Origin: Vulcanimicrobiota bacterium
GTDB taxonomy: Bacteria > Vulcanimicrobiota > Vulcanimicrobiia > Eremiobacterales > Eremiobacteraceae
Direction: 5' to 3'
NCBI GenBank assembly: GCA_963812135.1
Contig: CAWETU010000001.1
Coordinates: 480,001-544,000 of the forward strand
DNA: 64,000 nt
The notes under the pieces were generated by a model that did no database searches, had not been told where the DNA came from, and worked only from the letters and a program-made list of their open reading frames with translations. This document shows positions 3 through 17,844 of this stretch, piece after piece; the stretch's first letter is position 1; the number at the start of each line of letters is the position of its first letter. The position numbers were made by a program, and so were the translations under genes.

Positions 3-1778
3 GTGGCCAAGCTGTGCTACGCGCTCGACGACAGCGTCGAGATCGCGATCGCGGAGTTTGGCGCGCGCCACCCGGACGAGATCGCGCAACTCGTCGAGAT
101 GGCCGCGCCGGATGTCGGAGTGCTCGTCAACATCGGCGAGTCCCATTTGGAGTTCTTCGCCGATCGCGAGCAGCTCGCGCGCACGAAATTCGCGATCTTC
201 GGTGCGGGCGCGCGCCCAGTGTGCAATGCCGCGGATGAGTGGACGCGCAAACTCGCGGCTGAGGCGGGCATCGTCGAGCGTGCCTTGTGGGTGCGGCTGT
301 GCGGTGAGCCGGAGTTGGCGGGCTTGATGCTTGAAGCCGGCGTGCCGCGCGACGGACGCGTGGCGCTTTCGCTCGGCGCGTCACACGCGTTCGCGCCGTG
401 GCATCTGATCGGCGAACATCATCTACGCGACGCGCTGCTGGCGGTGGGCGCAGCGCTGCAATGCGGCGTGCGCTTCGAAGACGCGATTGAAGGCGTTGGC
501 GATCTGCGCTTGCCGCCCGGACGTTTTGAGCTGCACTCGCTGCCGAGCGGCGCTACCGCGGTGTATGACGCATATAACGCGAGCCCGACTTCAATGCGCC
601 ATGCGTTTAGCGCATTCGCATCGCTGCCCGCGGCGCGGCGCATCGCGGTGCTGGGCAGCATGGCCGAGCTCGGGGCGGACGCGGCAGCTGGTCACGAAAG
701 CACGGGCGCAGCGGCGGCGAGCGCCGGACTCGACGCGCTCTATTGCGGCGGCGATCACGCGCAGACGATCGCGCGCGGCGCGCTCGACGCCGGCATGGCG
801 CCGACATCCGTCCACACGTATGTCACAAATGCGGAAATCGCAAAAACCCTGCGGGACCAGCTGCGCGAAGGCGATGCGGTTCTGCTCAAGGGCTCTCGCG
901 TGCAACGGATGGAGGAGATTCTCGACGCCTTGCTCTTGGCTGACGCGCCTCCGGCACCGAAAGCCGAGACGTCGGAGGCGGCGAGAGCCGCCGGAGCCGA
1001 GCCGGGGAGGGAGACTATTCCGATGATCCCCGGCGTTCTCGGCGCAGGTGCCGGAAGCGCGGCAGATGAGAACGAGCGACGATTTGATGTCCAGGTACCC
1101 GAGCTTCCCGCGCGCATCGTGGCATTACCCGTTCGGACTCCCATCGTCCGCCCCGGGGATGACATTGCGAGGCTCGTCGCAGATTGCGTGCGCGGAATAA
1201 CCGGACCTGACGATGTCATCTGCGTCGCTGAGACAGCGGTCGCCATCGCGCAGGGCCGTTCCATCCCAGCTGAAGCGATCCGTCCGGGTCGCTTAGCTCG
1301 CGTTCTTGCGGAACAAGCTGGCCCGTACGCGACGATGAGCCAACCCGAGTCGGTGCAACTCGTGATCGAACAAGTCGGCACTGCGAAGGTGCTTGCGGCC
1401 GCCGTCGCCGGCGCAGCCGGCAGACTCGTCGGCCGACGCGGCGACTTCTACCGTTTCCTGGGCGCGGCCGTCGCGGAGATCGACGGTTACACCGGCACGA
1501 TGCCGCCGTACGAGCGCCACATCGTGTTTGGTCCGGCGGATCCCGCGGGCGTTGCTGAGGGGATCGCGGCCGCTTGCGGCGCGCGAGCCGTCATCGTCGA
1601 CGCGAACGATCTGCACAAAGCCGAGATCCTCGGGGCGAGCGCCGGCGTCGATGCCGACACGGTCCGGCTGTGCCTGTTGAGCAATCCGCACGGCAACAGC
1701 GACCAGCAAACCCCGGTCGTGGTGTTGAAATACCGGCCGCTGTCGGACGCCCCGCGCCGCTCGCCGTTGCTCGCATGA
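3..1778 (+). CDS. murF: UDP-MurNAc-tripeptide:D-Ala-D-Ala ligase (5'-truncated), fused in frame to a C-terminal CofE/F420-0:gamma-glutamyl ligase-like domain
   Basis: MurF motifs NIGESHLE, DAYNASPTSM, VLGSMAELG, LLKGSR; Ala/Pro linker; then PVRTPIVRPGDD...VAETAVAIAQGR...IDGYTGTMPPY...IVDANDL...NPHGNSDQQTP. Stop overlaps the mraY start (ATGA). Confidence 0.9.
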   Translation: MAKLCYALDDSVEIAIAEFGARHPDEIAQLVEMAAPDVGVLVNIGESHLEFFADREQLARTKFAIFGAGARPVCNAADEWTRKLAAEAGIVERALWVRLCGEPELAGLMLEAGVPRDGRVALSLGASHAFAPWHLIGEHHLRDALLAVGAALQCGVRFEDAIEGVGDLRLPPGRFELHSLPSGATAVYDAYNASPTSMRHAFSAFASLPAARRIAVLGSMAELGADAAAGHESTGAAAASAGLDALYCGGDHAQTIARGALDAGMAPTSVHTYVTNAEIAKTLRDQLREGDAVLLKGSRVQRMEEILDALLLADAPPAPKAETSEAARAAGAEPGRETIPMIPGVLGAGAGSAADENERRFDVQVPELPARIVALPVRTPIVRPGDDIARLVADCVRGITGPDDVICVAETAVAIAQGRSIPAEAIRPGRLARVLAEQAGPYATMSQPESVQLVIEQVGTAKVLAAAVAGAAGRLVGRRGDFYRFLGAAVAEIDGYTGTMPPYERHIVFGPADPAGVAEGIAAACGARAVIVDANDLHKAEILGASAGVDADTVRLCLLSNPHGNSDQQTPVVVLKYRPLSDAPRRSPLLA

Positions 1779-2737
1779 CGTTCACGCCGTTCTTCTCGAT
1801 CACGCTCGCGTTCGGTCTCGGCGCGATCGCGGCCGCACTCGTCGTTCCCGTGCTGATCGCCTGGCAGCGCCGGCATGCGCTCGGCCAACAGATCTATGAA
1901 GACGGGCCGGCATCGCACGCCGTGAAGCAAGGCACGCCCACCATGGGCGGCGTCGCGTTCGCGCTCGCCGCCATCATCGGAGCGCTCGTGCCGCCGATGG
2001 ACTGGTCGTGGCGCCTGCCAATCTTGTGCCTTGTCATAGCCGCTGCGGCGATCGGCTTCACCGATGACTATCTCAAACTGATCAGACAGCGCGCGCTGGG
2101 TTTGCGCGCGCGTTGGAAGTTCGGGTTGCTGGTGCTCGTCGCGATCGGCTTCGTGTGGTGGACATCGGCCTATCACCCGTTTGCCTCGGTCTGGTTCACC
2201 GGCGTCGTCGCGATGCCGCCCTGGTTGTGGGCGCTGTTGGGTGTGTGCGCGATCGTCGGCGCCGCCAACGCCGTGAATCTGACCGACGGTCTCGATGGCT
2301 TAGCAGCCGGAACCGCGATCCCGCCGCTCTTGCTGCTGGGTTTCTTGTTCGCCGGAATGATCCCGGCGGCGGTGGCCGGCAGCTGCACCGGCTTCCTTTA
2401 TTATAACCGGCACCCGGCTCGCATCTTCATGGGCGACACCGGCTCGCTCGCGCTGGGCGCGCTGCTCGGCGGCCTCGCGATCGAATACAATTTCCTGTTG
2501 CTGCTGCCCATCATCGGCATCGTCTTCGTCATCGAGGCGCTCTCCGTGATCGCGCAGGTGATCGGTTTCAAAACGACCGGCAAACGGATCCTTAAGATGA
2601 GTCCGCTGCATCATCACCTCGAGATGTCGGGCTGGCCGGAGCAGCGGATCACGATCGTCTTCGGCATTGTCTCGTTCTGCGCCACCTTCGGCGCCTACGT
2701 CCTCTTGTTGCTGACGTTGCGAGGCTCCGAGCTGTAA
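1775..2737 (+). CDS. mraY: Phospho-N-acetylmuramoyl-pentapeptide transferase
   Basis: KQGTPTMGG, GFTDDYLK, NAVNLTDGLDGL, FMGDTGS, PLHHHLE; ATG 1775 overlaps the murF stop. Confidence 0.97.
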   Translation: MTFTPFFSITLAFGLGAIAAALVVPVLIAWQRRHALGQQIYEDGPASHAVKQGTPTMGGVAFALAAIIGALVPPMDWSWRLPILCLVIAAAAIGFTDDYLKLIRQRALGLRARWKFGLLVLVAIGFVWWTSAYHPFASVWFTGVVAMPPWLWALLGVCAIVGAANAVNLTDGLDGLAAGTAIPPLLLLGFLFAGMIPAAVAGSCTGFLYYNRHPARIFMGDTGSLALGALLGGLAIEYNFLLLLPIIGIVFVIEALSVIAQVIGFKTTGKRILKMSPLHHHLEMSGWPEQRITIVFGIVSFCATFGAYVLLLLTLRGSEL

Positions 2738-4174
2738 ATGCCGAACGACGCAGCAGTGAATCTCGTAGAAGGCGACCGGGCGCTGATCATCGGCGTCGGC
2801 CGCAGCGGCATGGCCACCGCGGCCGTGCTGCGCGACCGCGGCCTCCGCGTCGCCGCCTACGACGACAAACCGCCCGAACAGCTCACCGCGCAACGCGCGG
2901 AGCTCGCTCGGCTCGACGTCGAGCTCGTCGACAAAGACGCCCTTACCGCTGCGACGTCGGACACCGACGTCGCCATTTTATCGCCCGGCGTGCCGCCCAA
3001 CAATCCGGCCGTGCTCCAGATCCAGCGAGCAGGCGTGCCGGTCATCGCGGAGATCGAAGCCGCGTATCGCATCGCCAAGGCGCCGATCATCGCGATCACG
3101 GGAAGCAAGGGCAAATCGACCACCACCGCGCTGACCGGGCACTTGCTGCGCAGCGCAGGCGCGCGCGCGCGGACCGGCGGCAACATCGGCAACCCGCTTA
3201 TCCGCGAAGCCGCCGCAGCGGCCGCGGACGAATGGCTCGTCGCCGAGGTCTCGAGCTTTCAGCTCGAAGCGATCAGCACGTTCCACCCACGCGTCAGCGT
3301 CATGCTCAATCTCTCGCCGGATCACCTGGACCGCTATCCGTCGATGGAAGAATACCGCGAAGCGAAGCTGCGCATTTTCGCCAACCAGGGCGAAGGCGAT
3401 TGGTTCGTCGGCAATGCCGACGATGCGGCGATCCGCGAATTGCACGACGGACCGGTGAAGCGCTTGCGCTGCGATAGCGCGTGGTTCTCCCTGTATGGGG
3501 CGGATATCGCCGACGTCACGTCCACCGACGGGTGGATCGTGCGGCGCACGCGCGGCAAGCGCGCGGCGAGCACCCGGTTCACGCCGGTCATCGCCATAAG
3601 CGACCTCAAGATCAAAGGCGCGCACAACGTGGCGAATGCGATGGCTGCGTATTTGGCGGCGTCGCTGGCGCTCTTGCGCGGCACGGTGATCGGCGCGCAC
3701 GACGATGCGCTCGTCGAAGGATTGCGTACCTTCGAACCGCTCGCGCACCGCTTGCAAACGGTCGCCACTGCCGCCGGCGTCGTCTGGGTCGACGACAGCA
3801 AGGCCAGTAATCCGGATGCTGTTGTCAAGGCGCTGCATGCGTTTGACGGCCCGATCATCCTGATCGCCGGCGGGCGCAGCAAACGGACCGACTTCGCCGG
3901 GCTCGCGAAAGCTGCGTCGGACCGCGCCAAGCTCATCGTCTTGATCGGCGAGAGCGCGCGGGAGATCGGATCGCTGGTGGAACGCGGCCCGATCGTTTAC
4001 GCGGATTCGATGACCGCTGCCGTGGCCGCCGCCGCCGAGGCCGCTGCCCCCGGCGACGTCGTGCTGCTCTCGCCTGGCTGCTCTTCCTTTGATATGTTCG
4101 ACAGCGCGGAGCAGCGAGGCGATGCGTTCGTCGCCGCCGTTCGCGGCCTGCTCGGCGAAACGGCCATCGCATGA
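2738..4174 (+). CDS. murD: UDP-MurNAc-L-Ala:D-Glu ligase
   Basis: AITGSKGKSTT, GGNIG, EVSSFQLE, NLSPDHLDR, DDSKA, LLSPGCSSFD. Confidence 0.97.
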   Translation: MPNDAAVNLVEGDRALIIGVGRSGMATAAVLRDRGLRVAAYDDKPPEQLTAQRAELARLDVELVDKDALTAATSDTDVAILSPGVPPNNPAVLQIQRAGVPVIAEIEAAYRIAKAPIIAITGSKGKSTTTALTGHLLRSAGARARTGGNIGNPLIREAAAAAADEWLVAEVSSFQLEAISTFHPRVSVMLNLSPDHLDRYPSMEEYREAKLRIFANQGEGDWFVGNADDAAIRELHDGPVKRLRCDSAWFSLYGADIADVTSTDGWIVRRTRGKRAASTRFTPVIAISDLKIKGAHNVANAMAAYLAASLALLRGTVIGAHDDALVEGLRTFEPLAHRLQTVATAAGVVWVDDSKASNPDAVVKALHAFDGPIILIAGGRSKRTDFAGLAKAASDRAKLIVLIGESAREIGSLVERGPIVYADSMTAAVAAAAEAAAPGDVVLLSPGCSSFDMFDSAEQRGDAFVAAVRGLLGETAIA

Positions 4175-5397
4175 CTGGCGAGCGGCGAGCGCCGGACATG
4201 ACGCTGCTCATAGCGGCCGGACTGCTGACCGCGATCGGCGCGATCATGGTCTTCTCGGCATCGTCCGTCGTCGGCATCACCCGCTATCACGACGCGACGC
4301 ACTTCTTCAAACGCGAGATCATCTGGGTCGTGCTCGGTGCAGCCGCATGCTGGATCGGGATGAAGCTCGACTACGGCGCGCTGCGTCGCGCGGCGCCGTG
4401 GCTGCTCGGCGTCGCGGTCGTGCTGCTCGTCGGCGTGCTGTTCCCGCATTTCGGCACCATCGAAGGCGGCGCGCGCCGCTGGTACGAGTTCGGCCTGTTC
4501 TCGTTCGAACCGTCCGAGTTCGCAAAGGTCGCGCTGATCATCTTCTTGGCCAAGCTGTTGGCGGACCGCGAGGACAGCGCACGCGATTTCAGCGCGATCG
4601 GCTTCCCCGCGCTGTTCTGGGTCGGCGTGTGCTTCATGCTCGTGCTGCGCCAACCGGACCTCGGCACCGCGACGCTGTTCTTGATGATCGCCTTCGTCAT
4701 GCTGTTCGCCGCTGGTGCTCGCCTCAGCCACCTCGCGATCGGCGTTGCGGTCGCGGTGCCTGCGCTGCTCGCGTTCGTCTATGCGAGTCCGTACCGGCGC
4801 GCGCGCTTCACCGCGTTCTTAGACCCAAATGCGGATCCCAAAGGCACCGGCTATCACATCTTGCAGTCGCTCTATGGCTTGGGCTCGGGCGGGATCTTCG
4901 GCGTCGGCCTCGGCCAAAGCCGGCAGAAGTTCGGCTACCTGCCCGAGCAGTACACCGACTTCATCTATTCGGTGCTGGGCGAAGAGCTCGGCTTCATCGG
5001 CGCGGCGGCGGTCCTCGTGCTGTTCTTGCTTTTCGCATACCGTGGACTGCGCATCGCGATGAAGGCCGAAGACCGCTTCGGCTTCTTCCTCGCGGTCGGC
5101 ATCACCGCAGCGATCGCGCTGCAAGCCTTCATCAATATCGGCGTGGTGACGTCGACATGGCCCGTCACGGGCGTGCCGCTGCCGTTCATCAGCTACGGCG
5201 GCACGTCGCTGGTCATGAGCCTGTTCGGAGTCGGCCTGCTGGCCGGCATCTCGCGCGGTCGATCGCGGGCGGCGCTTGCAGCCGACGAACGCACGAGAGG
5301 ATCTCGCGGTGCGTATTCTGCTCACCGGCGGCGGCACGGGCGGTCACCTATACCCCGCGCTGTCACTAGCGCAGGCGCTCTCCGGCGCGCCCGCTGA
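4171..5397 (+). CDS. ftsW: SEDS family peptidoglycan glycosyltransferase FtsW
   Basis: GARRW, EPSEFAK, QPDLGT, LPEQYTDFI, LPFISYGGTS; multi-TM. Confidence 0.95.
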   Translation: MTGERRAPDMTLLIAAGLLTAIGAIMVFSASSVVGITRYHDATHFFKREIIWVVLGAAACWIGMKLDYGALRRAAPWLLGVAVVLLVGVLFPHFGTIEGGARRWYEFGLFSFEPSEFAKVALIIFLAKLLADREDSARDFSAIGFPALFWVGVCFMLVLRQPDLGTATLFLMIAFVMLFAAGARLSHLAIGVAVAVPALLAFVYASPYRRARFTAFLDPNADPKGTGYHILQSLYGLGSGGIFGVGLGQSRQKFGYLPEQYTDFIYSVLGEELGFIGAAAVLVLFLLFAYRGLRIAMKAEDRFGFFLAVGITAAIALQAFINIGVVTSTWPVTGVPLPFISYGGTSLVMSLFGVGLLAGISRGRSRAALAADERTRGSRGAYSAHRRRHGRSPIPRAVTSAGALRRAR

Positions 5398-6523
5398 TCC
5401 CGGCGTCTGCTTGCCGGACGACGGCGAGCCACGCCTTGTCTTCCCCAACGACGCGCACGAAGTGCTCTTCGTCGGCACGCGTGGCGGGATGGAAACGGAG
5501 ATCGTCGCGCGCGCGAACGTACCCGCCGCGTACGTGCGCAGCCGGCCGCTTTCGCGCACGTCGCTGACCGCTGCGGCGGGCGGCGTCGCCGCCAACATGC
5601 TCGGCACCGGCGAAGCGATGCCGATCGTCCAGAAATTCAAACCGCACGTCGTGATCGCCACCGGCGGCTACGCAAGCGTGCCCGTCGTGATGGCCGCGGC
5701 TGCGTTGCGCGCATCGGGTTCGCTGCGCGGCACGAAGATCGTCTTGCTGGAGCCGAACGTGGAGCCCGGGCGCGCGAACCGCTTCATGGCACACGCTGCC
5801 AACGAGGTGTGGGGCGCGTTCGACGAGACAGCCGCGTTCTTCGGGCGCAAGTTCGTGACGACCGGCATTCCTGTGCGCGCGGAGATCTACGCGCGCCCGA
5901 CCCAGGTCGAAGCGCGGCGCAGCCTCGGGCTTGATCCCAAACTCATGACGGTGATCGTGTTCGGGGGAAGCCAGGGCGCACGCAGCATCAACGTGGCAGT
6001 GAGCGGCATGGTCGCGCGGCGCCGCTTGCCGCCCGACTTCCAGCTGCTCCACATCGCCGGCGAACGCGATTTCACGTGGATGGCCGCCGAGCGCAAAGTT
6101 GAGGCCAACACGAACCGCTATCAGCTCGTGCCGTACCTCGATCGCATGGAGCTCGCATACTCGGCGGCCGATGTCGCGGTCTGTCGCGCGGGCGCATCGA
6201 CGCTTGCCGAGCTCGCCGTCGTCGGTCTGCCGTCGATTCTCATCCCGTATCCGCACGCGACCGACGACCACCAGCGCAAGAACGCGGACGTGTTCGCGCG
6301 CCACAACGCGGCGCTGCTGATCGAGGACAAGAAGCTCGATTCGGATTCATTGTATTGGGCGCTCGTCGACGTGCTCACGCCCGACAAGCTCGCCGCGATG
6401 CGCTTCGGCGCCGCGTCCCTGTCGCACCCGCGTGCGCTGCAGACGATGATCGAGCGAATCGTCAAAGGCGAGATCGGCAAAAAACAGGCGCGCGTGGCCG
6501 CCAAGAAAAAGGCAGCCACATGA
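5309..6523 (+). CDS. murG: Lipid II GlcNAc transferase MurG
   Basis: GTG start at 5309; TGGGTGGHLYP, GGYAS, GGSQGA, CRAGAST, DHQRKNA. Confidence 0.96.
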   Translation: MRILLTGGGTGGHLYPALSLAQALSGAPADPGVCLPDDGEPRLVFPNDAHEVLFVGTRGGMETEIVARANVPAAYVRSRPLSRTSLTAAAGGVAANMLGTGEAMPIVQKFKPHVVIATGGYASVPVVMAAAALRASGSLRGTKIVLLEPNVEPGRANRFMAHAANEVWGAFDETAAFFGRKFVTTGIPVRAEIYARPTQVEARRSLGLDPKLMTVIVFGGSQGARSINVAVSGMVARRRLPPDFQLLHIAGERDFTWMAAERKVEANTNRYQLVPYLDRMELAYSAADVAVCRAGASTLAELAVVGLPSILIPYPHATDDHQRKNADVFARHNAALLIEDKKLDSDSLYWALVDVLTPDKLAAMRFGAASLSHPRALQTMIERIVKGEIGKKQARVAAKKKAAT

Positions 6524-8451
6524 TCCACTCCGCCTCCATTATCTTCACGCTGTTGCTCGCGCTACCGCTCATGGCGCTCGCGTCCCCGGTGGACGTCGCT
6601 CCGTATCTGCAGATCAAGGGGCAAAGCGGACCATCGCTTTCGCCGGACGGCACGCGCGTGGCGTTCAGCTTCGCGAAATCGGGCGTCTCTCAGGTCTGGG
6701 TCGCGCCGCTCGCGGGCGGCGATCCCGTCGAGCTCACTCGCGGTCCGGAACGCGCGGACTTCAAAGCGTGGTCGCCCACGCGCGCCGACGAGATCCTCTT
6801 CGGCCGCGATCTCGGCGGCGACGAGAACTGGCAGATCTGGATGTCGCGTCCGCACGATACTAGCGAAGCGCCGTTCATCGACGAGCCCGGCGTCCGTCAC
6901 CTTTTCGGCGGCTATTCATTTAACGGCGACAAGATCGCGTTTGCCTCGAACCGGCGCAACCGCGAATTCTTCGACGTGTACACCGCGACCGGAGAATTTC
7001 TATACATCCTCAACCAGTCCGAGCACTGCGCCCACCCACCGTGCGGCCCGCTGCCGGCGCTGGAGTCGGCGCGCATGGTCATGCAGGGCGACGGCGACAA
7101 CCAGCCCATCGCGTGGTCGCATGACGGCAAGACCTTGCTCGTCAGCATGCGCAAAGATAACTTTAACAACGATCTGCTGCTCGTCGACCTCGATCACGAC
7201 ACGTACATGGGCCGGTTGCTGACCGCGCACCCAGGCAACGCGGATTTCGAGAGCTGCGCGTTTTCGGGCGACGACTCAAAGGTCTATTGCGTGAGCGACT
7301 ACGGCGGCCGCGAGCATCGCGGCAGAGCCGTCATCGATCTACGAGGCGGCGCGCCGATCCACTTCCTCCCCGATCCTGCGCACGATGTCGAGTCACTGAC
7401 CCTGTCGCGCGACGGATCGAAAATGGCCTACGTGCGCAACCGCGATGGCTACGGCGACCTCATCGCCGTCGACGTCGCGACCGATGCGGTCATCGCATCG
7501 CCGCACATGCCGGCGGGCGTCGTAGCATCGCCTGTGTTCTCGGCAAAGGGTGACAAGCTTGCGTTCGAGTTCTCAGGCCCTTCGCACCCGAGCGCGATCT
7601 GGACCTATGATTTTGCGACCAAACAGACGCAGCAGATCACCACGCCGGAGCTCGCGGGAATCGCGCCGAGCACGTTCGTCGAGCCGCAGCTCATCACGTA
7701 CAGGTCGTTCGACGGCCTGAGCGTGCCGGCGTGGTACTACAAACCGCGAGGCGCCTCCGGGAATCTGCCGGTCATCATCGACGTCCATGGCGGCCCGGAA
7801 GCGCAGGCGCGCCCAGCGTTCAATCCGATCATCCAATTCTTCCTCGCGAGCGGCTACGCGGTGCTCGTGCCGAACGTGCGCGGCAGTTTCGGCTATGGCA
7901 ACACCTATCTGCATCTCGCCGACGTGCGCAAGCGGCTTGACTCGGTCAAGGATCTACACGCCGCACATGACTGGCTGATCGCCCAAGGCGGCGCCGATCC
8001 CAAGCGCATCGCGCTTTACGGCGGCTCGTACGGCGGCTACATGGTGCTCGCCGGCCTCACCGAGTTTCCTGACGACTGGGCGGCCGGCGTCGACGTCGTC
8101 GGCATCTCCAATTTCGTCACGTTCCTTGAACACACGAGTCCGTACCGCCGCGCGAATCGCGAAGCCGTCTACGGATCGCTTGCGAACGACCGCCAGTTCC
8201 TCGACTCGATCTCACCGCTGAACCACGTCGACCGCATCAAGGCGCCGCTGATCATCTTCATGGGGCAGAACGATCCGCGCGTGCCCGCGTCCGAAGGCCA
8301 GCAGATGGCCGACGCGCTCAAGGCGAAAGGCGTGCCCGTCGAGCTGACCATTTTCCCGAACGAGGGCCACGGCATCGCGCGCGACGAGAACCGCATCACC
8401 GCCTACACGCAGATCGCGCAGTTCCTCGGCACGCATCTCGCCGTGCCGTAG
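6520..8451 (+). CDS. Secreted S9 family (prolyl oligopeptidase/acylaminoacyl-peptidase-like) serine peptidase
   Basis: Signal peptide; PD40-like propeller repeats; VHGGPE, GGSYGG nucleophile, NDPRVP, EGHG; ATGA overlap with murG. Confidence 0.9.
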   Translation: MIHSASIIFTLLLALPLMALASPVDVAPYLQIKGQSGPSLSPDGTRVAFSFAKSGVSQVWVAPLAGGDPVELTRGPERADFKAWSPTRADEILFGRDLGGDENWQIWMSRPHDTSEAPFIDEPGVRHLFGGYSFNGDKIAFASNRRNREFFDVYTATGEFLYILNQSEHCAHPPCGPLPALESARMVMQGDGDNQPIAWSHDGKTLLVSMRKDNFNNDLLLVDLDHDTYMGRLLTAHPGNADFESCAFSGDDSKVYCVSDYGGREHRGRAVIDLRGGAPIHFLPDPAHDVESLTLSRDGSKMAYVRNRDGYGDLIAVDVATDAVIASPHMPAGVVASPVFSAKGDKLAFEFSGPSHPSAIWTYDFATKQTQQITTPELAGIAPSTFVEPQLITYRSFDGLSVPAWYYKPRGASGNLPVIIDVHGGPEAQARPAFNPIIQFFLASGYAVLVPNVRGSFGYGNTYLHLADVRKRLDSVKDLHAAHDWLIAQGGADPKRIALYGGSYGGYMVLAGLTEFPDDWAAGVDVVGISNFVTFLEHTSPYRRANREAVYGSLANDRQFLDSISPLNHVDRIKAPLIIFMGQNDPRVPASEGQQMADALKAKGVPVELTIFPNEGHGIARDENRITAYTQIAQFLGTHLAVP

Positions 8452-8464
8452 CGACCGCGGCTGG

Positions 8465-9418
8465 CTAGTGGATGGCCAGCCCTGCCGTGTGGACGCTGCC
8501 GCCGAACGCCGCGATGGTGATGATCGTCGGAACGGGCGTGGTCGTGCTGAACGTCGAGGCTGCGTTCGGGAACAGGTACAGCATCGGATCCTGCAAGTTG
8601 CTCGCGTAAAGATTGCCGCTCGCGTCGAAGACGAGCTGTTCGCCGGTGAAGATCAACGTCACCGAATTGCCGAGATGCGTGCTGATCGGCCCGCCGCCGG
8701 CAGTTGGGGCGTTGAACCGATCGATGCTGCCGTCGTTCACGTTCACGGTATACAGGTTGCCCGAGGCGTCAAACGCGAGCCCGTTGGGCTGGCTGGACCC
8801 GGTGAGCGGCGTTCCCGTCGGCAACTGCCCGGTCGTGAAAGGCGGATTGAATATCTCGATCGCCCCCGAGCCAAAAACCGATTTCGACACGTACAGATTG
8901 CCCGCGGCGTCGAACGCGATACCGCCGGGAGCCGTGACGCTTGAAATCGTCACCACGGGCGCCGGGGTGATGGAGCCGCTGAACGGTCCGACGAATTCGT
9001 ACACTTTGTTGGTGCCGCCATCCCCGACCCACAGGTTCCCAGTCGCGTCGAACGCGATCGCAACAGGGTTCATGGAGCCGGGGATGTTGATGGTCGCGAA
9101 CGGCGTGCTGGCGCTGGTCAGCGGGAGCGTATAGCCCACCACCTCGGCGCTCGTTGCATCGTTGACCGCCCAAAGATTGCCTTGATGATCGAACGCCAGG
9201 CCCACCGGGAATTTCAATCCGGCCGGCGTGACCACCGACGTCGGAACGGAGCCGCCAGATAACGGCAGGGAGAAGATGGCGACTTGTGGGGTGCCGGTGA
9301 AGCCGCTGACGTAAATGGACTGCCCCGAGCCCGGCGGCGGCCCAGGATTGGTCGACGCGGCAGAACAGCCTATTGACGTCAGGATTATGATTCCGGCCAA
9401 GAGCCACAAGCGCTTCAT
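8465..9418 (-). CDS. Putative lipoprotein with NHL-like beta-propeller repeats
   Basis: MKRLWLLAGIIILTSIGC signal with lipobox-like Cys; five repeats of (G)[LI]AFDxxGNL[WY]. Confidence 0.8.
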   Translation of the reverse strand: MKRLWLLAGIIILTSIGCSAASTNPGPPPGSGQSIYVSGFTGTPQVAIFSLPLSGGSVPTSVVTPAGLKFPVGLAFDHQGNLWAVNDATSAEVVGYTLPLTSASTPFATINIPGSMNPVAIAFDATGNLWVGDGGTNKVYEFVGPFSGSITPAPVVTISSVTAPGGIAFDAAGNLYVSKSVFGSGAIEIFNPPFTTGQLPTGTPLTGSSQPNGLAFDASGNLYTVNVNDGSIDRFNAPTAGGGPISTHLGNSVTLIFTGEQLVFDASGNLYASNLQDPMLYLFPNAASTFSTTTPVPTIITIAAFGGSVHTAGLAIH

Positions 9419-9598
9419 TGAACGAGTCTCCCTACTAGTGGACGATCGCACAAAGCGACGGGAACGCAGAGCCGCGCCGTTCCCCGCGTTGGGTACACGA
9501 GTCCTGGCGAGACGACGGCTGATCGAGGTATCAGACTGCGCTCGCTCACACTCGAAGCAAAGGGGCCGAATGCCGGGACACCTAAATCAACAGTCCGG

Positions 9599-11017
9599 AT
9601 GATAACGTACCGACACGTGCATTTCGTCGGCATCGGCGGCGTCGGCATGAGCGCGATCGCGCGCGTGCTGATCGCAATGGGCATCACCGTTTCCGGTTCC
9701 GATCTCAAAACGACGAATACGCTTGAAAAATTGCGCGCGCTCGGCGCGCAGGTGCATCTCGGCCACGGTTCGGGCAACATTAAAGGCGCGGACGCCGTCG
9801 TCATCTCATCCGCCATCCCGCAAGACAATCCTGAAGTCATCGCCGCGCAACGCACGGGTGTGCCCGTGCTCCAGCGCGCGGAGATGCTCGCGCAGATCAT
9901 GGCGGACAAGCGTGCGGTCGCGGTGTCCGGCACGCACGGCAAGACGACCACGACGTCGATGATCTCGCTCGTGCTCGATGCGGGCGGTTTCGAATCGACC
10001 GTGCTCATCGGCGGCGAGGTCAACGATCTCGGCGCGAACGCGCGGCTCGGCAGCGGCGACGTGGTTGTCGCGGAAGCTGACGAAAGCGACGCGTCGTTCC
10101 TGCGCCTCACGCCCACCTGTGCCGTCGTCACTAATATCGAGAACGACCATCTCGGCTACTATCGCGATCTCGAGCACCTCATCGACACGTTCTCGTTGTT
10201 CATCAATCGCGTGCCGCCCAATGGCAGCATCGTCGCGTCAGCGGATTGCCCAGCCGTCAACGAACTCATCCGGCGCTTCTACGAATCGCCGAAACTGCTC
10301 GGCGATCCCAAGATCGTCACCGCGGGTTTCGACGCCGCCGCGGACGTGCGCGCCGACAGCGTGCGCCTCGCCGACTTCGGCTCGGTCTTCGACGCATTTC
10401 AGAAAGGCCAGCTGCTCGGCGAAGTCCGGCTGCGCGTGCCCGGCCGCATCAACGTGCACAACGCGCTGTGCGCGCTCGCCGTCGGCCTCGAGTTCGGCGT
10501 GCCGTTCGACCGCATCGTGCATGCGCTCGGAAGGTTCCGCGGCGTCGCGCGCCGCTTTCAGATCTTGTACGATAGCGACGCGCTCAAGATCGTCGATGAT
10601 TACGCGCATCACCCGACCGCCGTCCAAGAGACAATCGCGGCGGCGCGCGCGTATTGGGCCGGGCACATCGTGGTCGCGTTCCAGCCGCACCGCTACAGCC
10701 GCACGGCGTATCTGTTCCGCGATTTCGCGCACGCGCTGCTCGGCGCCGATGAGATCATCGTCACGGATATCTACGCCGCGGGTGAGGTGCCGCTGCCCGG
10801 CGTGCGCGCCGAGTCGATCGTCGAGTGCGTGCGCGACCTCGACGCTGCCAAACGCGTCACCTATCTGCCCAAAGCCGCAGACGTGCTCGCGTACCTGCAA
10901 CGCACGCTCGGATCCGGCGACCTGGCGCTCACGCTCGGCGCCGGCGACATCGGCGGTGTCGCCCACGAACTTGCGGCCAGTCTGTCGGCCGCCGACGCCG
11001 GCATCGGTTCCGTCTAA
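9599..11017 (+). CDS. murC: UDP-MurNAc:L-Ala ligase
   Basis: HFVGIGGVGMS, GTHGKTTT, EADESD, DDYAHHPT, FQPHRYSRT. Confidence 0.98.
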   Translation: MITYRHVHFVGIGGVGMSAIARVLIAMGITVSGSDLKTTNTLEKLRALGAQVHLGHGSGNIKGADAVVISSAIPQDNPEVIAAQRTGVPVLQRAEMLAQIMADKRAVAVSGTHGKTTTTSMISLVLDAGGFESTVLIGGEVNDLGANARLGSGDVVVAEADESDASFLRLTPTCAVVTNIENDHLGYYRDLEHLIDTFSLFINRVPPNGSIVASADCPAVNELIRRFYESPKLLGDPKIVTAGFDAAADVRADSVRLADFGSVFDAFQKGQLLGEVRLRVPGRINVHNALCALAVGLEFGVPFDRIVHALGRFRGVARRFQILYDSDALKIVDDYAHHPTAVQETIAAARAYWAGHIVVAFQPHRYSRTAYLFRDFAHALLGADEIIVTDIYAAGEVPLPGVRAESIVECVRDLDAAKRVTYLPKAADVLAYLQRTLGSGDLALTLGAGDIGGVAHELAASLSAADAGIGSV

Positions 11018-11914
11018 GTGCTGAACGACGCGCAACGCGCCGCGTTGAAGAGTACGCTCGGCAAGAGCGTCGAGTTCGACGTGCCGCTGGCGCCGAAAAC
11101 CTCGATGAAAGTCGGTGGACCGGCCGCAGCGCACGCCGAGATCAGCAGCATCGTGACGCTGACCGCCGCGTTGAGCCTGTGCGAACAGCACCAGATCCCA
11201 TGGACGATCATCGGATTCGGCAGCAACCTGCTCGTGCCCGACGAGGGATACCCCGGCCTCGTCGTCAGGCTCGTCGGCGACTTCACCAAAGTGAGCATCA
11301 ACGGCACGCGCGTGCGTGCGGGCGGTGCGACGCCCGTCGTGTCGCTGTGCCGCGAAGCCGCGCTCGCCGGCCTTTCGGGAGCGGAGGGTCTGGTCGGCAT
11401 CCCCGGCACGGTCGGCGGAGCGGTGCGCATGAACGCCGGCACCGACGTCGAGATCGGCGACGTCGTCACCCGCGTCGAGGTGCTCGTCGCAGGCGAGAAG
11501 CTGCAAACATTCACAACGCCCGAATTCTCCTATCGCCGTTCGTCGCTCGACCGGCGCGCGGTGGTCACCGCCGCCGAGCTCGAACTCAAGCCCGGCGATC
11601 CCGCCGAGGTGCAAGCCGAGCTCAAACGGCGCATCACCAAGCGCAATTCGACGCAGCCGCTCGAATTGCCCAACTCCGGCAGCATCTTCCGCAATCCGCC
11701 CGGTGACTTCGCCGCGCGGCTCATCGAGACGACGGGTTGCAAAGGCTGGCACTGGGGCGGCGCCGAGGTGTCCGACAAACACGCCAACTTCATCGTCAAT
11801 CGCGGCAACGCGACGTGCGCCGACGTGCTCGCGCTCGTCGAGCGGGTGCGCGAAGCGGTCAAAGCCAAACACGGCGTCGAACTGGAGCTTGAAGTGCACG
11901 TCCTCAAGGCGTGA
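11018..11914 (+). CDS. murB: UDP-N-acetylenolpyruvoylglucosamine reductase
   Basis: KVGGPA, GSNLLV, GIPGTVGGAVRMNAG, GSIFRNP, KHANFIVN, LELEV. Confidence 0.96.
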   Translation: MLNDAQRAALKSTLGKSVEFDVPLAPKTSMKVGGPAAAHAEISSIVTLTAALSLCEQHQIPWTIIGFGSNLLVPDEGYPGLVVRLVGDFTKVSINGTRVRAGGATPVVSLCREAALAGLSGAEGLVGIPGTVGGAVRMNAGTDVEIGDVVTRVEVLVAGEKLQTFTTPEFSYRRSSLDRRAVVTAAELELKPGDPAEVQAELKRRITKRNSTQPLELPNSGSIFRNPPGDFAARLIETTGCKGWHWGGAEVSDKHANFIVNRGNATCADVLALVERVREAVKAKHGVELELEVHVLKA

Positions 11915-12855
11915 GCGGGGGTCGGGTGGGCAAACCGAGGATCGCCGTCGTCACCGGCGGCGATTCCGCCGAACGCGAGATCAGCCTGCAGACCGGCGCA
12001 GGCGTCGCGGCCGCGCTCACGGAGCTCGGTTATCCGAGCATCACCCTCGACTTCGACAAGAACATCGTCGACGCGCTGCGCGAGCAGCGCCCTGACGCGA
12101 TCTTCAACGCGCTGCATGGCGGCACGGGTGAAGACGGCACGTTGCAAGCGATCTTGGATTGGCTGCGCATCCCCTATCAGGGTTCCGGCGCGCGCGCGAG
12201 CGCCCTGGCCATGGATAAGTGGATCACCAAAGCGGTCGCGCGTTCGCTCGACATCCCGGTGCCGCGCGGCGTCTTGCTCGACGCGAGCGCGGGCGAAGCC
12301 GACGCGATACCGGAAATGCCCGGACTGCCGTGCGTCGTCAAACCGGTCGCGCAAGGTTCCGCGGTCGGCGTCAACATCGTGCACTTCCCCGAGCAGTTTT
12401 CGGCAGCGGTTCGCGAGGCGGCCGCGTTCGATCACGCGATCATCGTCGAAGAGTATGTCGAGGGACGCGAATTCACGGTCGCCGTTTTGGCAGACCAGAC
12501 GTTACCGGTGGTCGAGATCGTGCCGCACGACGATTTCTACACGTATCACGCCAAGTACACGGCCGGCGCGAGCACGCACGTGGTGCCTGCCGACCTGCCC
12601 GAGCACGTGTCGGCCCGCATGGCGGCGCACGCCACGCGTTTGCATCGCGCGCTCGGCTGCCGTGATTATTCGCGAGTGGACGTGTTGATGTCGGTCACCA
12701 ATTCGATGTACGTGCTCGAATGCAACACGCTGCCTGGGCTCACGCCGCTCAGCCTGTTCCCGGAAGCGGCAGCCGCAGCGGGCATCACGTACGGCGCCCT
12801 CATCGAGCGCCTTGTTCACGCGGCGTTGTCGCGGGCGGGAGTCGGCGCGTCATGA
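11911..12855 (+). CDS. ddl: D-alanine--D-alanine ligase
   Basis: GGDSAEREISL, ALHGGTGEDG, AMDKW, ECNTLPGLT. Confidence 0.96.
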   Translation: MSGGRVGKPRIAVVTGGDSAEREISLQTGAGVAAALTELGYPSITLDFDKNIVDALREQRPDAIFNALHGGTGEDGTLQAILDWLRIPYQGSGARASALAMDKWITKAVARSLDIPVPRGVLLDASAGEADAIPEMPGLPCVVKPVAQGSAVGVNIVHFPEQFSAAVREAAAFDHAIIVEEYVEGREFTVAVLADQTLPVVEIVPHDDFYTYHAKYTAGASTHVVPADLPEHVSARMAAHATRLHRALGCRDYSRVDVLMSVTNSMYVLECNTLPGLTPLSLFPEAAAAAGITYGALIERLVHAALSRAGVGAS

Positions 12856-15477: not shown

Positions 15478-15514
15478 TAACGGTAAGTTACCACTAACCG
15501 ATAGGTCTTGTCAA
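15478..15514 (-). promoter_or_regulatory. Putative promoter and operator of the arsR-SRPBCC pair
   Basis: TTGACA (15514-15509), 18 nt, TAACTT (15490-15485), 7 nt before the GTG; inverted repeat CGGTAAGT-N4-ACTAACCG at 15481-15500. Confidence 0.55.
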
Positions 15515-16746
15515 GCCTGCGCGGCGGAATCCGCGGTACCAGCGGGCTGGGCTTGTCCGATAAGCCCCATCGCCCGCAGCAGCGGCTCGAGCAGCGAGCC
15601 CTGGACCACCACCGTGAAGAGCACGACCGAGAACACCATCGACACGAGCAGCGATTTGCTCGGGAAATCGTCCGGCAGGCTCAACACCAGCGCCATCGAG
15701 AGCGCGCCGCGCATCCCCGCGAGCGTGATGGCGTTCTGCCATTTCGAGGAGAGCGGCCGCCCGAGCAGCGCGCTCACCGGGGCGAGCAGTCGGACGATGA
15801 GCGGCCGGCCGACGATGACGGCGAGCAGGCCCCAGGCGGCATCGGGCCACTCCGACATGATGTCGCGGATGTGGATCGATGCGCCGATCAGCAAGAACAG
15901 CGCAGTGTTCGCCAAGAACGCGACCACTTCCCAAAAACCGCCGATCGTGGCGCGCTGTTCGGGCGCGAGCTTGCTAAGACTGGTGGACCCGGCGATCACG
16001 ATCGCGGCGAAGATCACCGCCATGATGCCGGACACGCCGAGGTCGTCGGCGATGAAGTACGCGCCGTACGCGACGGCGACCGTCACACCCGCGACCACCA
16101 TCACCTGATCGGCGATCAGGCGGATGACCAGCCGTGAGAGGTAACCGATCACCACCCCGACGGCGATGCCGCCGGCCGTCATCAGGAAGAACTCCCACGC
16201 CGTCTGCCCGAGGTGAAAGCCGGGTCCTTGGGCGGCGAACACCGCCAACAGCGCGCTGAACGCAACGACCGAGGTGCCGTCGTTGAACAAGCTTTCGCCT
16301 TCGACGATCGCGAGCAGGCTCGGATTCACCCGCAGCGTCTTGAACAGCGCGAGCACCGCGACCGGATCCGTCGCGGCGACCACGGCGCCGAAGATGATCG
16401 CCGTCTGGGGCGCCAAATGCGCGCCGAATACCAAGAAGACGTATGAGAGCGCGATGACGAGCACGACGCCGACCGTCGCAAGCAGCGTGATCGGGACCCA
16501 GTTGCGGCGCAGCTCCTTCGTGTCGGCATTCCAACCGCCATCGAACAGCAGCGGCGGCAAAAACACGAACAAGACGAGGCCCGGCGTGAGCTCGATCGCG
16601 CGCTGATGCGGTATCAGTCCGATCAGCAGTCCGGCGAGCACCAGGCCGACCGTGTACGGGATGCGCAGCCGCGCGGTGAGCACCGACATCGCCACGACCA
16701 CGGCGAGCATTTCCGCGAGTTGCGGTGCGCCCGGCAGATGGGTCAT
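15511..16746 (-). CDS. CPA1 family Na+/H+ antiporter
   Basis: FLPPLLF, ATDPVAV, EGESLFNDG, GMRGALS; own ATG 16746 overlaps the alr stop. Confidence 0.93.
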   Translation of the reverse strand: MTHLPGAPQLAEMLAVVVAMSVLTARLRIPYTVGLVLAGLLIGLIPHQRAIELTPGLVLFVFLPPLLFDGGWNADTKELRRNWVPITLLATVGVVLVIALSYVFLVFGAHLAPQTAIIFGAVVAATDPVAVLALFKTLRVNPSLLAIVEGESLFNDGTSVVAFSALLAVFAAQGPGFHLGQTAWEFFLMTAGGIAVGVVIGYLSRLVIRLIADQVMVVAGVTVAVAYGAYFIADDLGVSGIMAVIFAAIVIAGSTSLSKLAPEQRATIGGFWEVVAFLANTALFLLIGASIHIRDIMSEWPDAAWGLLAVIVGRPLIVRLLAPVSALLGRPLSSKWQNAITLAGMRGALSMALVLSLPDDFPSKSLLVSMVFSVVLFTVVVQGSLLEPLLRAMGLIGQAQPAGTADSAAQA

Positions 16747-17844
16747 GTGTAGCGGCGTTCGAGATGGTGTGGCAGGCGCGCGAGGATCTCGTAGTTGATC
16801 GTACCGGCCGCTTTGGCGAGCGGCTCGATCTCGATCTGCGCGAGGTCGCCGAGCGCGACCGCCGGCTCGATGCCGGTGACGTCGAGCATACAGGCGTTCA
16901 TGCAGATGCGCCCGACGATCGGCGCGCGCGCCGCGCCGAGCCGCACGTGCATGCGCCCGCCGCCGGCCGCGCGCGGCAGTCCATCCGCATAGCCGGCGGG
17001 CAACACGGCGATACGGCTGTCGCGTGAGGCGACGAACGCGCGCGAGTATCCCACGCTCTCGCCCGCTCGCACATCGCGCAGCTGCACGATCGGGGCGAAC
17101 CAGCGCAGCGCCGGGCGCAATTCGAACGATGGATCGTCGCCGGCGAGCACTGCCGCGACTTGCGGGGACGGCCACGCGCCGTAGAGCGCGATGCCGCAGC
17201 GCACCATGTCGAGGCGCGTCTGCGGCCACATCATCGCAGCCGCGGAAGCCGCGATGTGCCTTTTCGCTTGAGGAAATGTGGCGGTCGAGTTCTACTCGAC
17301 CGAGCGCCTCGACTTGTTGCATCACGAACGTTGTATCGATATCCTCGGCGCTTGCGAGGTGCGAGTAGATGCCGGCGATCTCAAGACCGAGCGCTTTCGC
17401 GCGTTCGAGGACTGCGCCTGCCCGGTCGCTCGGCACGCCGAAGCGGCCGACGCCGGTGTCGACCTTGAGATGCGCGACGATGTGATGGCGCGCGAACGGC
17501 TCGACCATGCTCTCGTCGAGCAGGCCGAGTTGCAATCGCGCGCTCGCGGCCTGCGCGAGTTGCGCTTCCGCAACCGGCCCGACGACGAGGATCGGCTGTT
17601 CGATGCCCGCATCGCGCAGCGCCAGTCCCTCATCCGCGGTGAAGACGCCGAACCACAGTCCGTCGATGCCGGCGCCGGCCAAGGCAAGGCCGACCGGCAC
17701 GAGCCCGTGGCCGTACGCCTCGGACTTGACGACCGCGCAAAAGGCCGCCGGCGCCGCTTTTTTGGCCAGCGCCCGGGCGTTGGCGACAAGCGTCGCACGG
17801 TCGATTTCGAGCCACGAAGCGGCCTCAGCCACGACCCCGTCCAC
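16743..17844 (-). pseudogene. alr: Alanine racemase split by a frameshift near 17275-17300 (pseudogene, recoding or sequence error)
   Basis: N-half AVVKSEAYGHG, HLKVDTG, YSHLASA in one frame; C-half RHIAASAA, MVRCGIALYG, GYADG, VGRICMN, GTINYEI in the +1 frame. Confidence 0.88.
17278..17302 (+). repeat. REP-like palindrome, family A, inside alr
   Basis: GTGG-CGGTCGAGT-TCT-ACTCGACCG with a perfect 9-bp stem. Confidence 0.7.

Follow-up and report, generated by a model that had tools for sequence, protein, structure and literature searches.

MurT/GatD and the AsnB-type enzymes LtsA/AsnB1 use glutamine-derived ammonia to amidate D-Glu or diaminopimelate at free carboxylates of cytoplasmic peptidoglycan precursors, and we know of no enzyme that decorates a stem-peptide carboxylate with an amine or an amino acid. 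Catalogued fusions of MurF have partners from the same pathway (MurE/MurF, NF008896, and MurF/alanine racemase, NF008897). The F420-cofactor ligase CofE, grouped with FbiB's N-terminal domain (PF01996, TIGR01916; structures 2PHN, 2G9I and 7ULD), parallels MurD in its chemistry according to PMC10861534: an acyl phosphate is formed on two metal ions and is then attacked by an amine. Here, we analyzed a stretch of 64,000 nucleotides (nt) from a soil bacterium of the phylum Eremiobacterota/Vulcanimicrobiota (assembly GCA_963812135.1, contig CAWETU010000001.1, positions 480,001 to 544,000; hereafter, the window), in which murF, inside the division and cell wall (dcw) cluster, is fused to a relative of CofE, so that the partner of MurF is in this case an uncharacterized domain with the predicted fold of CofE. 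The link of this CofE-like family to peptidoglycan is well supported, and the fusion protein may be a dedicated peptidoglycan enzyme, putatively a nucleoside triphosphate-dependent amide ligase acting on a muramyl-peptide precursor, a reading for and against which we see the chances evenly balanced.

Organization of the fusion gene

The fusion gene is an open reading frame (ORF) of 739 amino acids (aa) with a GTG start (L001:40-2259), of which the window holds the 3′ part as a frame that is open throughout from nt 3 to nt 1778 of the forward strand. The features of this part and of the next gene are the following:

3..932, + strand: 3′ two thirds of murF (Mur_ligase_M and Mur_ligase_C); the gene starts at G000:C1:479559 in the source genome (G000), 441 nt upstream of the window
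~933-1091, + strand: low-complexity Ala/Pro/Gly linker of ~50 residues, which replaces the overlapping stop/start junction of relatives
1003-1012 and 1023-1025, + strand: Shine-Dalgarno-like GGGGAGGGAG and in-frame ATG, both present in the sequence
1092..1775, + strand: domain of 230 aa with predicted CofE fold, plus a short C-terminal tail (PF01996, AlphaFold model, structure search, hhalign)
1775..2737, + strand: mraY (Glycos_transf_4, 121.8 bits)

The full-length protein matches the MurF model TIGR01143 with 317.9 bits (cut-off 288.6) over residues 32-458 and the complete profile (1-418 of 418), and PF01225, PF08245 and PF02875 are its recorded Mur-ligase domains. The profile match ends at window nt ~930, beyond the residues LLKGSR encoded at nt 883-900, which agrees with the end of MurF near nt 930 given in the initial annotation, a model's reading of the sequence alone. 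The same annotation had the frame continue through an Ala/Pro linker into a further domain whose stop is coupled to mraY, and this description holds as well, the stop TGA (1776-1778) overlapping the ATG of mraY (1775-1777) as ATGA. With murE directly upstream of murF and mraY overlapping the stop, MurF occupies its expected place in the dcw cluster. The linker varies in sequence and length among the fused members of the window's genus, and at its end the first 9 residues of the modeled stretch, which begins at nt 1020, have a predicted local distance difference test score (pLDDT) below 50. The CofE-like domain that had been proposed was recovered with PF01996 (F420_ligase) at 50.5 bits (53.5 for the domain alone; cut-off 25), though over profile positions 2-81 of 218 only (nt 1131-1376); the profile of the subfamily covers nt 1092-1748.

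The fusion is genuine

In most relatives, murF and the CofE-like gene (X in the gene orders below) are two genes in different frames, which favors the possibility that a frameshift or an assembly error merged them in the window. Against such an artefact, the in-frame fusion is also present in 4 of the 19 relatives' loci (G002, G003, G005 and G006), all from the window's genus, and these genomes together with the source genome carry intact linkers of two kinds. The MurF fusion further makes up 25 protein clusters, named only ‘MurF’, in a collection of 5.8 billion proteins (NCBI, JGI, ENA and Logan). A contig of metagenome run X1, which may be the source sample, spans nt 818-1400 with 0 differences and 0 gaps, and a contig of run X3, from another study, spans nt 935-1085 with 2 substitutions and 0 gaps; a stop codon in the linker, which the initial annotation had named as a sign against its reading, did not appear. 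Because the same arrangement is found in genus relatives, in 25 clusters and in gap-free contigs from two studies, the joining of murF to the CofE-like domain is a genuine in-frame fusion and no assembly slip, and the artefact explanation, to which we allow next to no chance, is refuted for practical purposes. Within Eremiobacterota, the true fusion was seen only in the window's genus, and it is a late, local event in which the murF/X junction was lost and a linker was gained.

In a second family of the window's class, open frames of 705-860 aa around X were considered as further fusions and rejected, as tblastn puts murF and X in different frames in 6 of 6 loci.

One suggestion of the initial annotation was not supported, namely that the domain may also be made separately from the ATG at 1023, behind the Shine-Dalgarno-like run. 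The corresponding Met is Lys in G005 and G006, the closest fused relatives, and the linker of G002 and G003 is of another kind, which rules out this ATG as a conserved internal start; in addition, the separate genes of relatives start at the murF stop, which was the ancestral start site and is situated ~20 codons downstream of the position matching that Met. GGGGAGGGAG, a purine run, encodes Pro-Gly-Arg-Glu (PGRE), which opens a conserved G-R-E-(T/I)-(I/V)-P segment. One RNA run yielded only short contigs over this region, 90-99% alike and probably derived from relatives.

A predicted CofE fold outside F420 synthesis

An AlphaFold (AF2) model of the domain, computed with 46 family members as input, has a mean pLDDT of 90.9. 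In the comparison with known structures that the initial annotation had called for, the search against structure representatives (VIA) returned Archaeoglobus fulgidus CofE (2phn_A) with Z = 14.1 (root-mean-square deviation 3.0 Å over 179 residues) and a next match at only Z = 4.5, and Foldseek against 2phn gave E = 9 × 10−10 and a TM score of 0.56. At the level of sequence profiles, hhalign aligned domain residues 32-205 with five canonical CofE proteins at a probability of 98%. The model thus assigns the domain the CofE fold, with CofE as the sole convincing structural match. A homodimer prediction for the domain scored 0.00, gave no verdict and weighs neither way.

The N-terminal motifs P-V-x-T / G-D-D and x-Q/E-G-R are common to CofE and the domain. 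The domain differs from CofE in extra helices at residues 109-136 and in a shorter C-terminus, the structural alignment ending at CofE residue 225 and the hhalign alignment at CofE residue 162. The elements of CofE that bind F420 are, according to PMC10861534, F92, G153-C155 and R234, the last of which lies on a swapped hairpin and stacks on the F420 ring; the structural alignment stops ahead of R234, and the domain has a C-terminal motif of its own family instead.

The scores of the domain fall far below the cut-offs of both CofE equivalogs (32.7-34.8 bits vs. 180.65 for TIGR01916, and 40.3-42 bits vs. 274 for NF009809), and the fusion gene is the single PF01996 copy in the source genome. The initial annotation had noted that the window holds no F420 genes, and this extends to the whole genome for the two F420 genes searched: for CofD, the best match to the family profile is 19.7 bits (cut-off 257.45), and the CofH homologs, at 328 and 285 bits, are below the cut-off of 374.1. 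Five other, larger Eremiobacterota genomes hold both a canonical CofE (184-229 bits, PF01996 positions 2/4-218) and the paralog (22-50 bits, N-terminal match only). CofD and CofH were checked in four of these five (G085, G078, G080 and G043; the fifth is G073). Both are above their cut-offs in G085, G078 and G080, whereas in G043 CofD is just below (241 bits) and a CofH match of note is absent. Considering the equivalog scores, the CofD and CofH results and the coexistence in the same genomes, canonical CofE and the CofE-like domain are paralogs with different jobs, and the latter is, judging from these sequence comparisons, no F420 enzyme. As a separate observation, G078, G080 and G085, with canonical CofE, CofD and CofH all above cut-offs, probably make F420.

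Gene order and spread in Eremiobacterota

The CofE-like family was found in all 41 close relatives searched and in 198 of the 201 genomes sampled from the phylum (170 of the 171 high-quality ones), the three genomes without it being 90%, 75% and 67% complete. Searched exhaustively, a set of 1.84 billion representatives yielded 697 matches at E ≤ 10−3 and 89 at E ≤ 10−30. The survey of fusion or adjacency with murF and mraY that the initial annotation had proposed placed X between the two genes in all 25 relatives' loci examined from the window's class, so that the dcw linkage is present in relatives too, and revealed fusions with wall enzymes elsewhere. In the window's family, the order murF-X-mraY-murD is kept in 19 of 19 loci, with murF visible in 18 (one contig begins inside the gene). 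In the second family, 6 of 6 loci have murE-murF-X-mraY-murD-ftsW, and 5 of the 6 go on through murG-murC-murB-ddl, with annotation that reaches the end of the cluster; in the remaining locus (L073), murG, murC, murB and ddl gave no match. Loci L069-L073 were analyzed by tblastn, the crude ORF caller having overlooked the gene. The tallies include loci of genomes flagged as unpublished (L010/G016 and L021/G010) as well as G013 and G191, and omitting them changes nothing.

In the window's class, X is normally a separate protein of 230-250 aa, and at 13 of the 14 separate-gene loci the murF stop and its start codon share bases (NTGA); with its stop overlapping the ATG of mraY, X is translationally coupled on both sides. 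Across genera, the identity of X is 67-73%, compared with 57-67% for MurF and 52-65% for MraY, so that X is more conserved than either neighbor.

The other Eremiobacterota classes have a longer form of ~400 aa, composed of an N-terminal membrane helix, basic residues, a generic beta-sandwich and the CofE-like domain. The N-terminal domain of this form was modeled at a pLDDT of 85.5, and its best structural match (Z = 9.4, with many ties) offers no functional hint. A membrane helix followed by basic residues, as read by eye, is consistent with a site of action on the membrane's inner face. Of the 14 loci from these classes, 2 (both from one family) place the gene immediately behind ddl, and a NAGPA-type gene is near.

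A conserved protein of 545-640 aa (typically ~570) adjoins the ~400-aa gene divergently in 6 of these 14 loci (L055:9082-10719, L056:8980-10707, L058:9216-11138, L063:5778-7508, L066:9436-11151 and L067:5840-7549), followed in four of the six by an M50 or M50B protease; the conserved protein matches no Pfam or NCBIfam family and has only a weak GvpG-like coiled stretch.

Fusions and neighbors in other lineages

Fusion partners were identified by scanning 45 longer matches, chosen from the 150 listed. Among these, the domain is joined to Amidase_3 in 6, to AsnB-type Asn_synthase/GATase in 8 and to TPR repeats in 6; single cases involve Polysacc_deac_1, GNAT, an M20 peptidase and MurF, and one is a read-through into MraY. 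A separate search of the protein collection added 6 clusters with the AsnB fusion. Among the partners are enzymes for the synthesis, cleavage or amidation of the muramyl peptide, with which the domain has been fused independently.

In the Bacillota-like phylum to which a metagenome-assembled genome labeled Eubacteriales (that of L043) belongs, 109 of the 301 genomes sampled carry the family. We compared 19 loci from this phylum, obtained from 20 hand-picked stretches by dropping two in which the ORF caller found no match (L120 and L131) and adding L043. In 9 of the 19, Amidase_3 is fused to the CofE-like domain (4), encoded by the adjoining gene (4) or no more than three genes away (1), and a wall-related neighbor is present in 13 of the 19. 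Neighbors include SpoVB/MurJ-like flippases in 4 loci, blaI-blaR1 in 2, gpr with spoIIP in 1, and NamZ plus an RpiR/SIS regulator adjoining the gene in L114. An ‘ancestral-form’ basic-amino-acid decarboxylase adjoins the gene in 2 of the 19, and a pyruvoyl arginine decarboxylase lies two genes away in 1. The six Amidase_3 fusion proteins inspected lack an N-terminal hydrophobic segment, as judged by eye, and are for that reason probably cytoplasmic.

Several loci are from spore-former-like genomes. In L118 (5063-7845) the gene is inserted between gpr and spoIIP, and in L122, L127 and L128 the Amidase_3 fusion adjoins a flippase gene, that of L122 reaching 348.9 bits with the SpoVB model TIGR02900 (cut-off 372.3) and those of L127 and L128 being Polysacc_synt/MatE proteins. 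These loci hint at a role in cortex or engulfment peptidoglycan. The genome of L043 (G211) has two family copies (L080 and L081), one standalone after Amidase_3, in the order decarboxylase-Amidase_3-X-PepV, and one within a 472-aa open frame.

In a language-model look-up, which provides leads only, the 400-aa form is common in Cyanobacteriota, and other clusters are from Actinomycetota and Chloroflexota. Two 500-aa relatives of the membrane-anchored form (P0130 and P0069) have long Ala/Arg/Ser-rich N-terminal extensions resembling organelle transit peptides, and their nearest Atlas clusters are mostly cyanobacterial with a non-bacterial minority (scores 0.84-0.86, a lead only); they may be plastid-targeted copies in algae.

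Proposed reaction

Being coupled to both neighbors, the separate X is made together with the enzymes that finish UDP-MurNAc-pentapeptide and then attach it to the membrane. In the proposed reaction, a nucleoside triphosphate and a divalent metal would activate a carboxylate of a cytoplasmic muramyl-peptide precursor as an acyl phosphate, as in CofE, and an incoming amine would attack the acyl phosphate to yield an amide. The likeliest target would be a free carboxyl of the stem peptide (the alpha-carboxyl of D-Glu, or diaminopimelate) that receives an amine or an amino acid, and the likeliest carrier would be UDP-MurNAc-pentapeptide or lipid I/II. A stem-peptide carboxylate is favored because of the AsnB-type fusions, and a precursor substrate at the membrane is plausible because the membrane anchor of the 400-aa forms fits it. 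We infer the ligase activity, the nucleotide and both substrates from the fold, the synteny, the conservation and the fusions with wall enzymes. The chemistry would be that of the Mur ligases (MurC, MurD, MurE, MurF and Mpl), with which the domain shares the operon and here even the polypeptide, and the fold of these ligases is unrelated to the CofE fold. The folds of MurT/GatD and of the AsnB-type enzymes likewise differ from that of the domain, and a MurT-type Mur-ligase paralog is absent from the source genome.

For a version of the reaction in which the amine is a diamine, the decarboxylase neighbors are weak leads and the only points in favor. The source genome has a single SLH-domain match (G000:C1:274695-274826, 51.4 bits) and a single CsaB-like pyruvyl transferase (PS_pyruv_trans, G000:C1:81226-82071, 134.7 bits), which fits an OmpM-type tether of the outer membrane to a pyruvylated polymer. 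With these present, a polyamine-modified wall is not needed to tether the outer membrane, which speaks against the diamine version.

The main rival to stem-peptide decoration is a salvage ligase analogous to Mpl, which would supply MurF and MraY by linking UDP-MurNAc, through its D-lactyl carboxylate, once more to a stem peptide from recycling (or to L-Ala), the cytoplasmic Amidase_3 releasing the peptide for re-use. In favor of salvage, CofE's natural first substrate has a lactyl carboxylate at its end as well, Amidase_3 adjoins or is fused to the domain in 8 of the 19 Bacillota-like loci, the six fusion proteins described above are signal-free as judged by eye, M20/PepV, S58 and S9 peptidases are fused or nearby, and NamZ and the RpiR/SIS regulator accompany the gene in L114. 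Mpl is absent from the source genome, whose Mur-ligase paralogs are MurC, MurD, MurE, MurF and FolC only, and to our knowledge Mpl is rare in these lineages; the place between murF and mraY would suit salvage as well. We nevertheless regard salvage as improbable, as a recycling enzyme would be unusual as a near-universal protein of a phylum, or as one embedded and translationally coupled inside the dcw cluster, and the AsnB-type fusions suit modification of the stem peptide better.

Leaving the choice between stem-peptide decoration and re-ligation without Mpl aside, the subfamily may form a class of unrecognized cytoplasmic ligases of peptidoglycan precursors with a fold unrelated to that of the Mur ligases, a generalization that we advance tentatively and hold to be somewhat on the doubtful side. 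Such a class would extend over Eremiobacterota and Bacillota-like lineages and probably also Cyanobacteria and Actinomycetota. Our literature search found no report tying CofE-like proteins to peptidoglycan, MurF, amidases or sporulation, and for Eremiobacterota peptidoglycan it found only an electron-microscopy description; the fold and the general chemistry are already known, and the cell-wall setting and the fusions are undescribed as far as the literature was searched. Proteins labeled ‘F420-0:gamma-glutamyl ligase’ in organisms without F420, so far without a role, hereby gain a concrete, testable setting. If the domain is a ligase, it would extend by one step a pathway that is regarded as complete, and the peptidoglycan chemistry of these lineages would be incompletely described. 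The findings also bear on annotation, public records naming the fusion plain MurF and the standalone proteins or fragments ‘coenzyme F420-0:L-glutamate ligase’ (CofE). A cultured member of the phylum, Vulcanimicrobium alpinus, exists (PMC9758169), which makes muropeptide analysis and genetics feasible.

Conserved residues and alternatives to a wall ligase

For residue counts, the query and the 150 best representatives were aligned to the family profile, and 18 of the 151 rows with coverage below 80% were removed, leaving 133. D65, E71, R80, D155, D194, N196, D197 and N222 are retained in 86-99% of these rows. The conserved positions in the window include:

1482..1484, + strand: codon for Asp155 (domain numbering; 642 in the full-length protein), which belongs to the motif EIDG; 131 of the 133 rows have D
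1599..1610, + strand: motif D194-A-N196-D197, overlapping the I-T-D150-T151-N place of CofE; conserved in 132 (D194), 127 (N196) and 123 (D197) of the 133 rows
1683..1715, + strand: family-specific C-terminal motif N222-P-x-G-N-x-D-Q-Q-T-P; conserved in 132 (N), 131 (P), 130 (G), 128 (T) and 130 (P) of the 133 rows

Family-wide, the C-terminal motif has the form N-P-x-G-N/Q-x-x-E/Q-Q-T-P, and it lies outside the hhalign match to canonical CofE. Comparison of the 7ULD sequence with canonical CofE places Asp109 in G-I-D-A-S-N, Asp150-Thr151 in I-T-D-T-N and Glu208 in L-M-G-E. Reportedly (Nocek et al. 2007), these residues are metal-binding, and the CofE-invariant residues (here, those invariant in the five canonical CofE proteins aligned) bind metal or GTP. 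The partner of CofE D150 is D194 by HMMER vs. N196 by hhalign. Of the canonical CofE motifs, the family retains G-R, one Gly and the Asp/Asn cluster at the S-D-S place. The set of conserved polar residues looks like an active site, although not the exact one of CofE.

The following observations weigh against an amide ligase of the wall. The CofE-invariant S-K-A-E-G-R is replaced by A-I-A-Q-G-R (K47 to I and E49 to Q), and in the family the E49 position is Q in 115 of the 133 rows and E in 14. The Asp of G-V-D-x-S-N, at the place of Asp109, aligns with a variable Ala, the near-invariant Asp155 following five residues on, and the canonical motifs GRxWR, DYRG and AEL are without counterpart. With CofE-invariant residues replaced, the chemistry may differ from that of CofE. 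The Pfam and PDB sequence matches span only the N-terminal third of the domain, and hhalign stops at domain residue 205. As to genomic context, at 11 of the 14 loci from other Eremiobacterota classes no wall gene could be recognized at a distance of up to four genes, wall-related neighbors are absent from 6 of the 19 Bacillota-like loci, and the share of fusions among the latter is inflated because five of the 20 stretches were picked for long open frames. Finally, MurC, MurD, MurE and MurF are all present in the source genome, so that no known step of the pathway is missing. The initial annotation had proposed that the domain ligates an amine or amino acid onto the stem peptide, thereby giving orphan CofE-like proteins a function; the CofE fold, the non-F420 character and the tight and phylogenetically broad link to peptidoglycan support part of this proposal, and the replacement of several CofE-invariant residues detracts from it.

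The loss of these residues and the confinement of the sequence match to the N-terminal third would also be compatible with a CofE-fold protein that is no ligase, such as a nucleotide- or precursor-binding adaptor or regulator coupling MurF to MraY, or a muramyl-peptide hydrolase. The TPR fusions, suggestive of protein-protein roles, and the hydrolases that often accompany the gene fit this possibility too. It is unlikely in our assessment, given that 133 distant representatives retain, at the frequencies above, eight residues that are polar or charged (three Asp among them), that the conservation of the protein exceeds that of MurF and MraY, a pattern more typical of an active site, and that ligation is the only known activity of the CofE fold.

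The scarcity of wall genes at most loci of the other classes could alternatively reflect a ligase for a substrate outside peptidoglycan, for instance one that glutamylates another cofactor or metabolite and sits in the dcw cluster by operon history only. In L116, a Bacillota-like locus, the gene comes after pabA-pabB-pabC-like genes, and CofE itself glutamylates a cofactor (PMC10861534). Wall enzymes of no fewer than four kinds (MurF, Amidase_3, AsnB-type and Polysacc_deac_1) are fused to the domain independently in different lineages, which together with the two-sided translational coupling conserved across two families argues against a substrate of this sort, a reading that we consider quite unlikely.

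Other genes of the cluster and its surroundings

Downstream of mraY, gene families were assigned by a Pfam scan and gene starts were taken from a crude ORF caller:

2738-4174, + strand: murD
4171-5397, + strand: ftsW
~5276-6523, + strand: murG
~6355-8451, + strand: S9 serine peptidase with PD40/TolB-like propeller repeats; start uncertain
8465-9451, - strand: NHL-repeat protein
9599-11017, + strand: murC
11018-11914, + strand: murB
11911-12855, + strand: ddl

The S9 peptidase lies between murG and murC, an unusual place for a peptidase. In the segment 12720-14308, the genes after ddl encode a PpaX-like HAD phosphatase and a Tim44-like protein, and the customary ftsQ-ftsA-ftsZ does not come after it in the 33.6 kb annotated. 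On the reverse strand, at 15511-17844, lies a 777-aa open frame whose residues 10-183 correspond to the N-terminal half of an alanine racemase (Ala_racemase_N, 125.5 bits; TIGR00492, 110 bits vs. a cut-off of 168) and residues 377-760 to a Na+/H+ antiporter (Na_H_Exchanger, 234.7 bits). The frame may be a genuine fusion, may contain a truncated racemase, or may have arisen when the ORF caller merged two genes.

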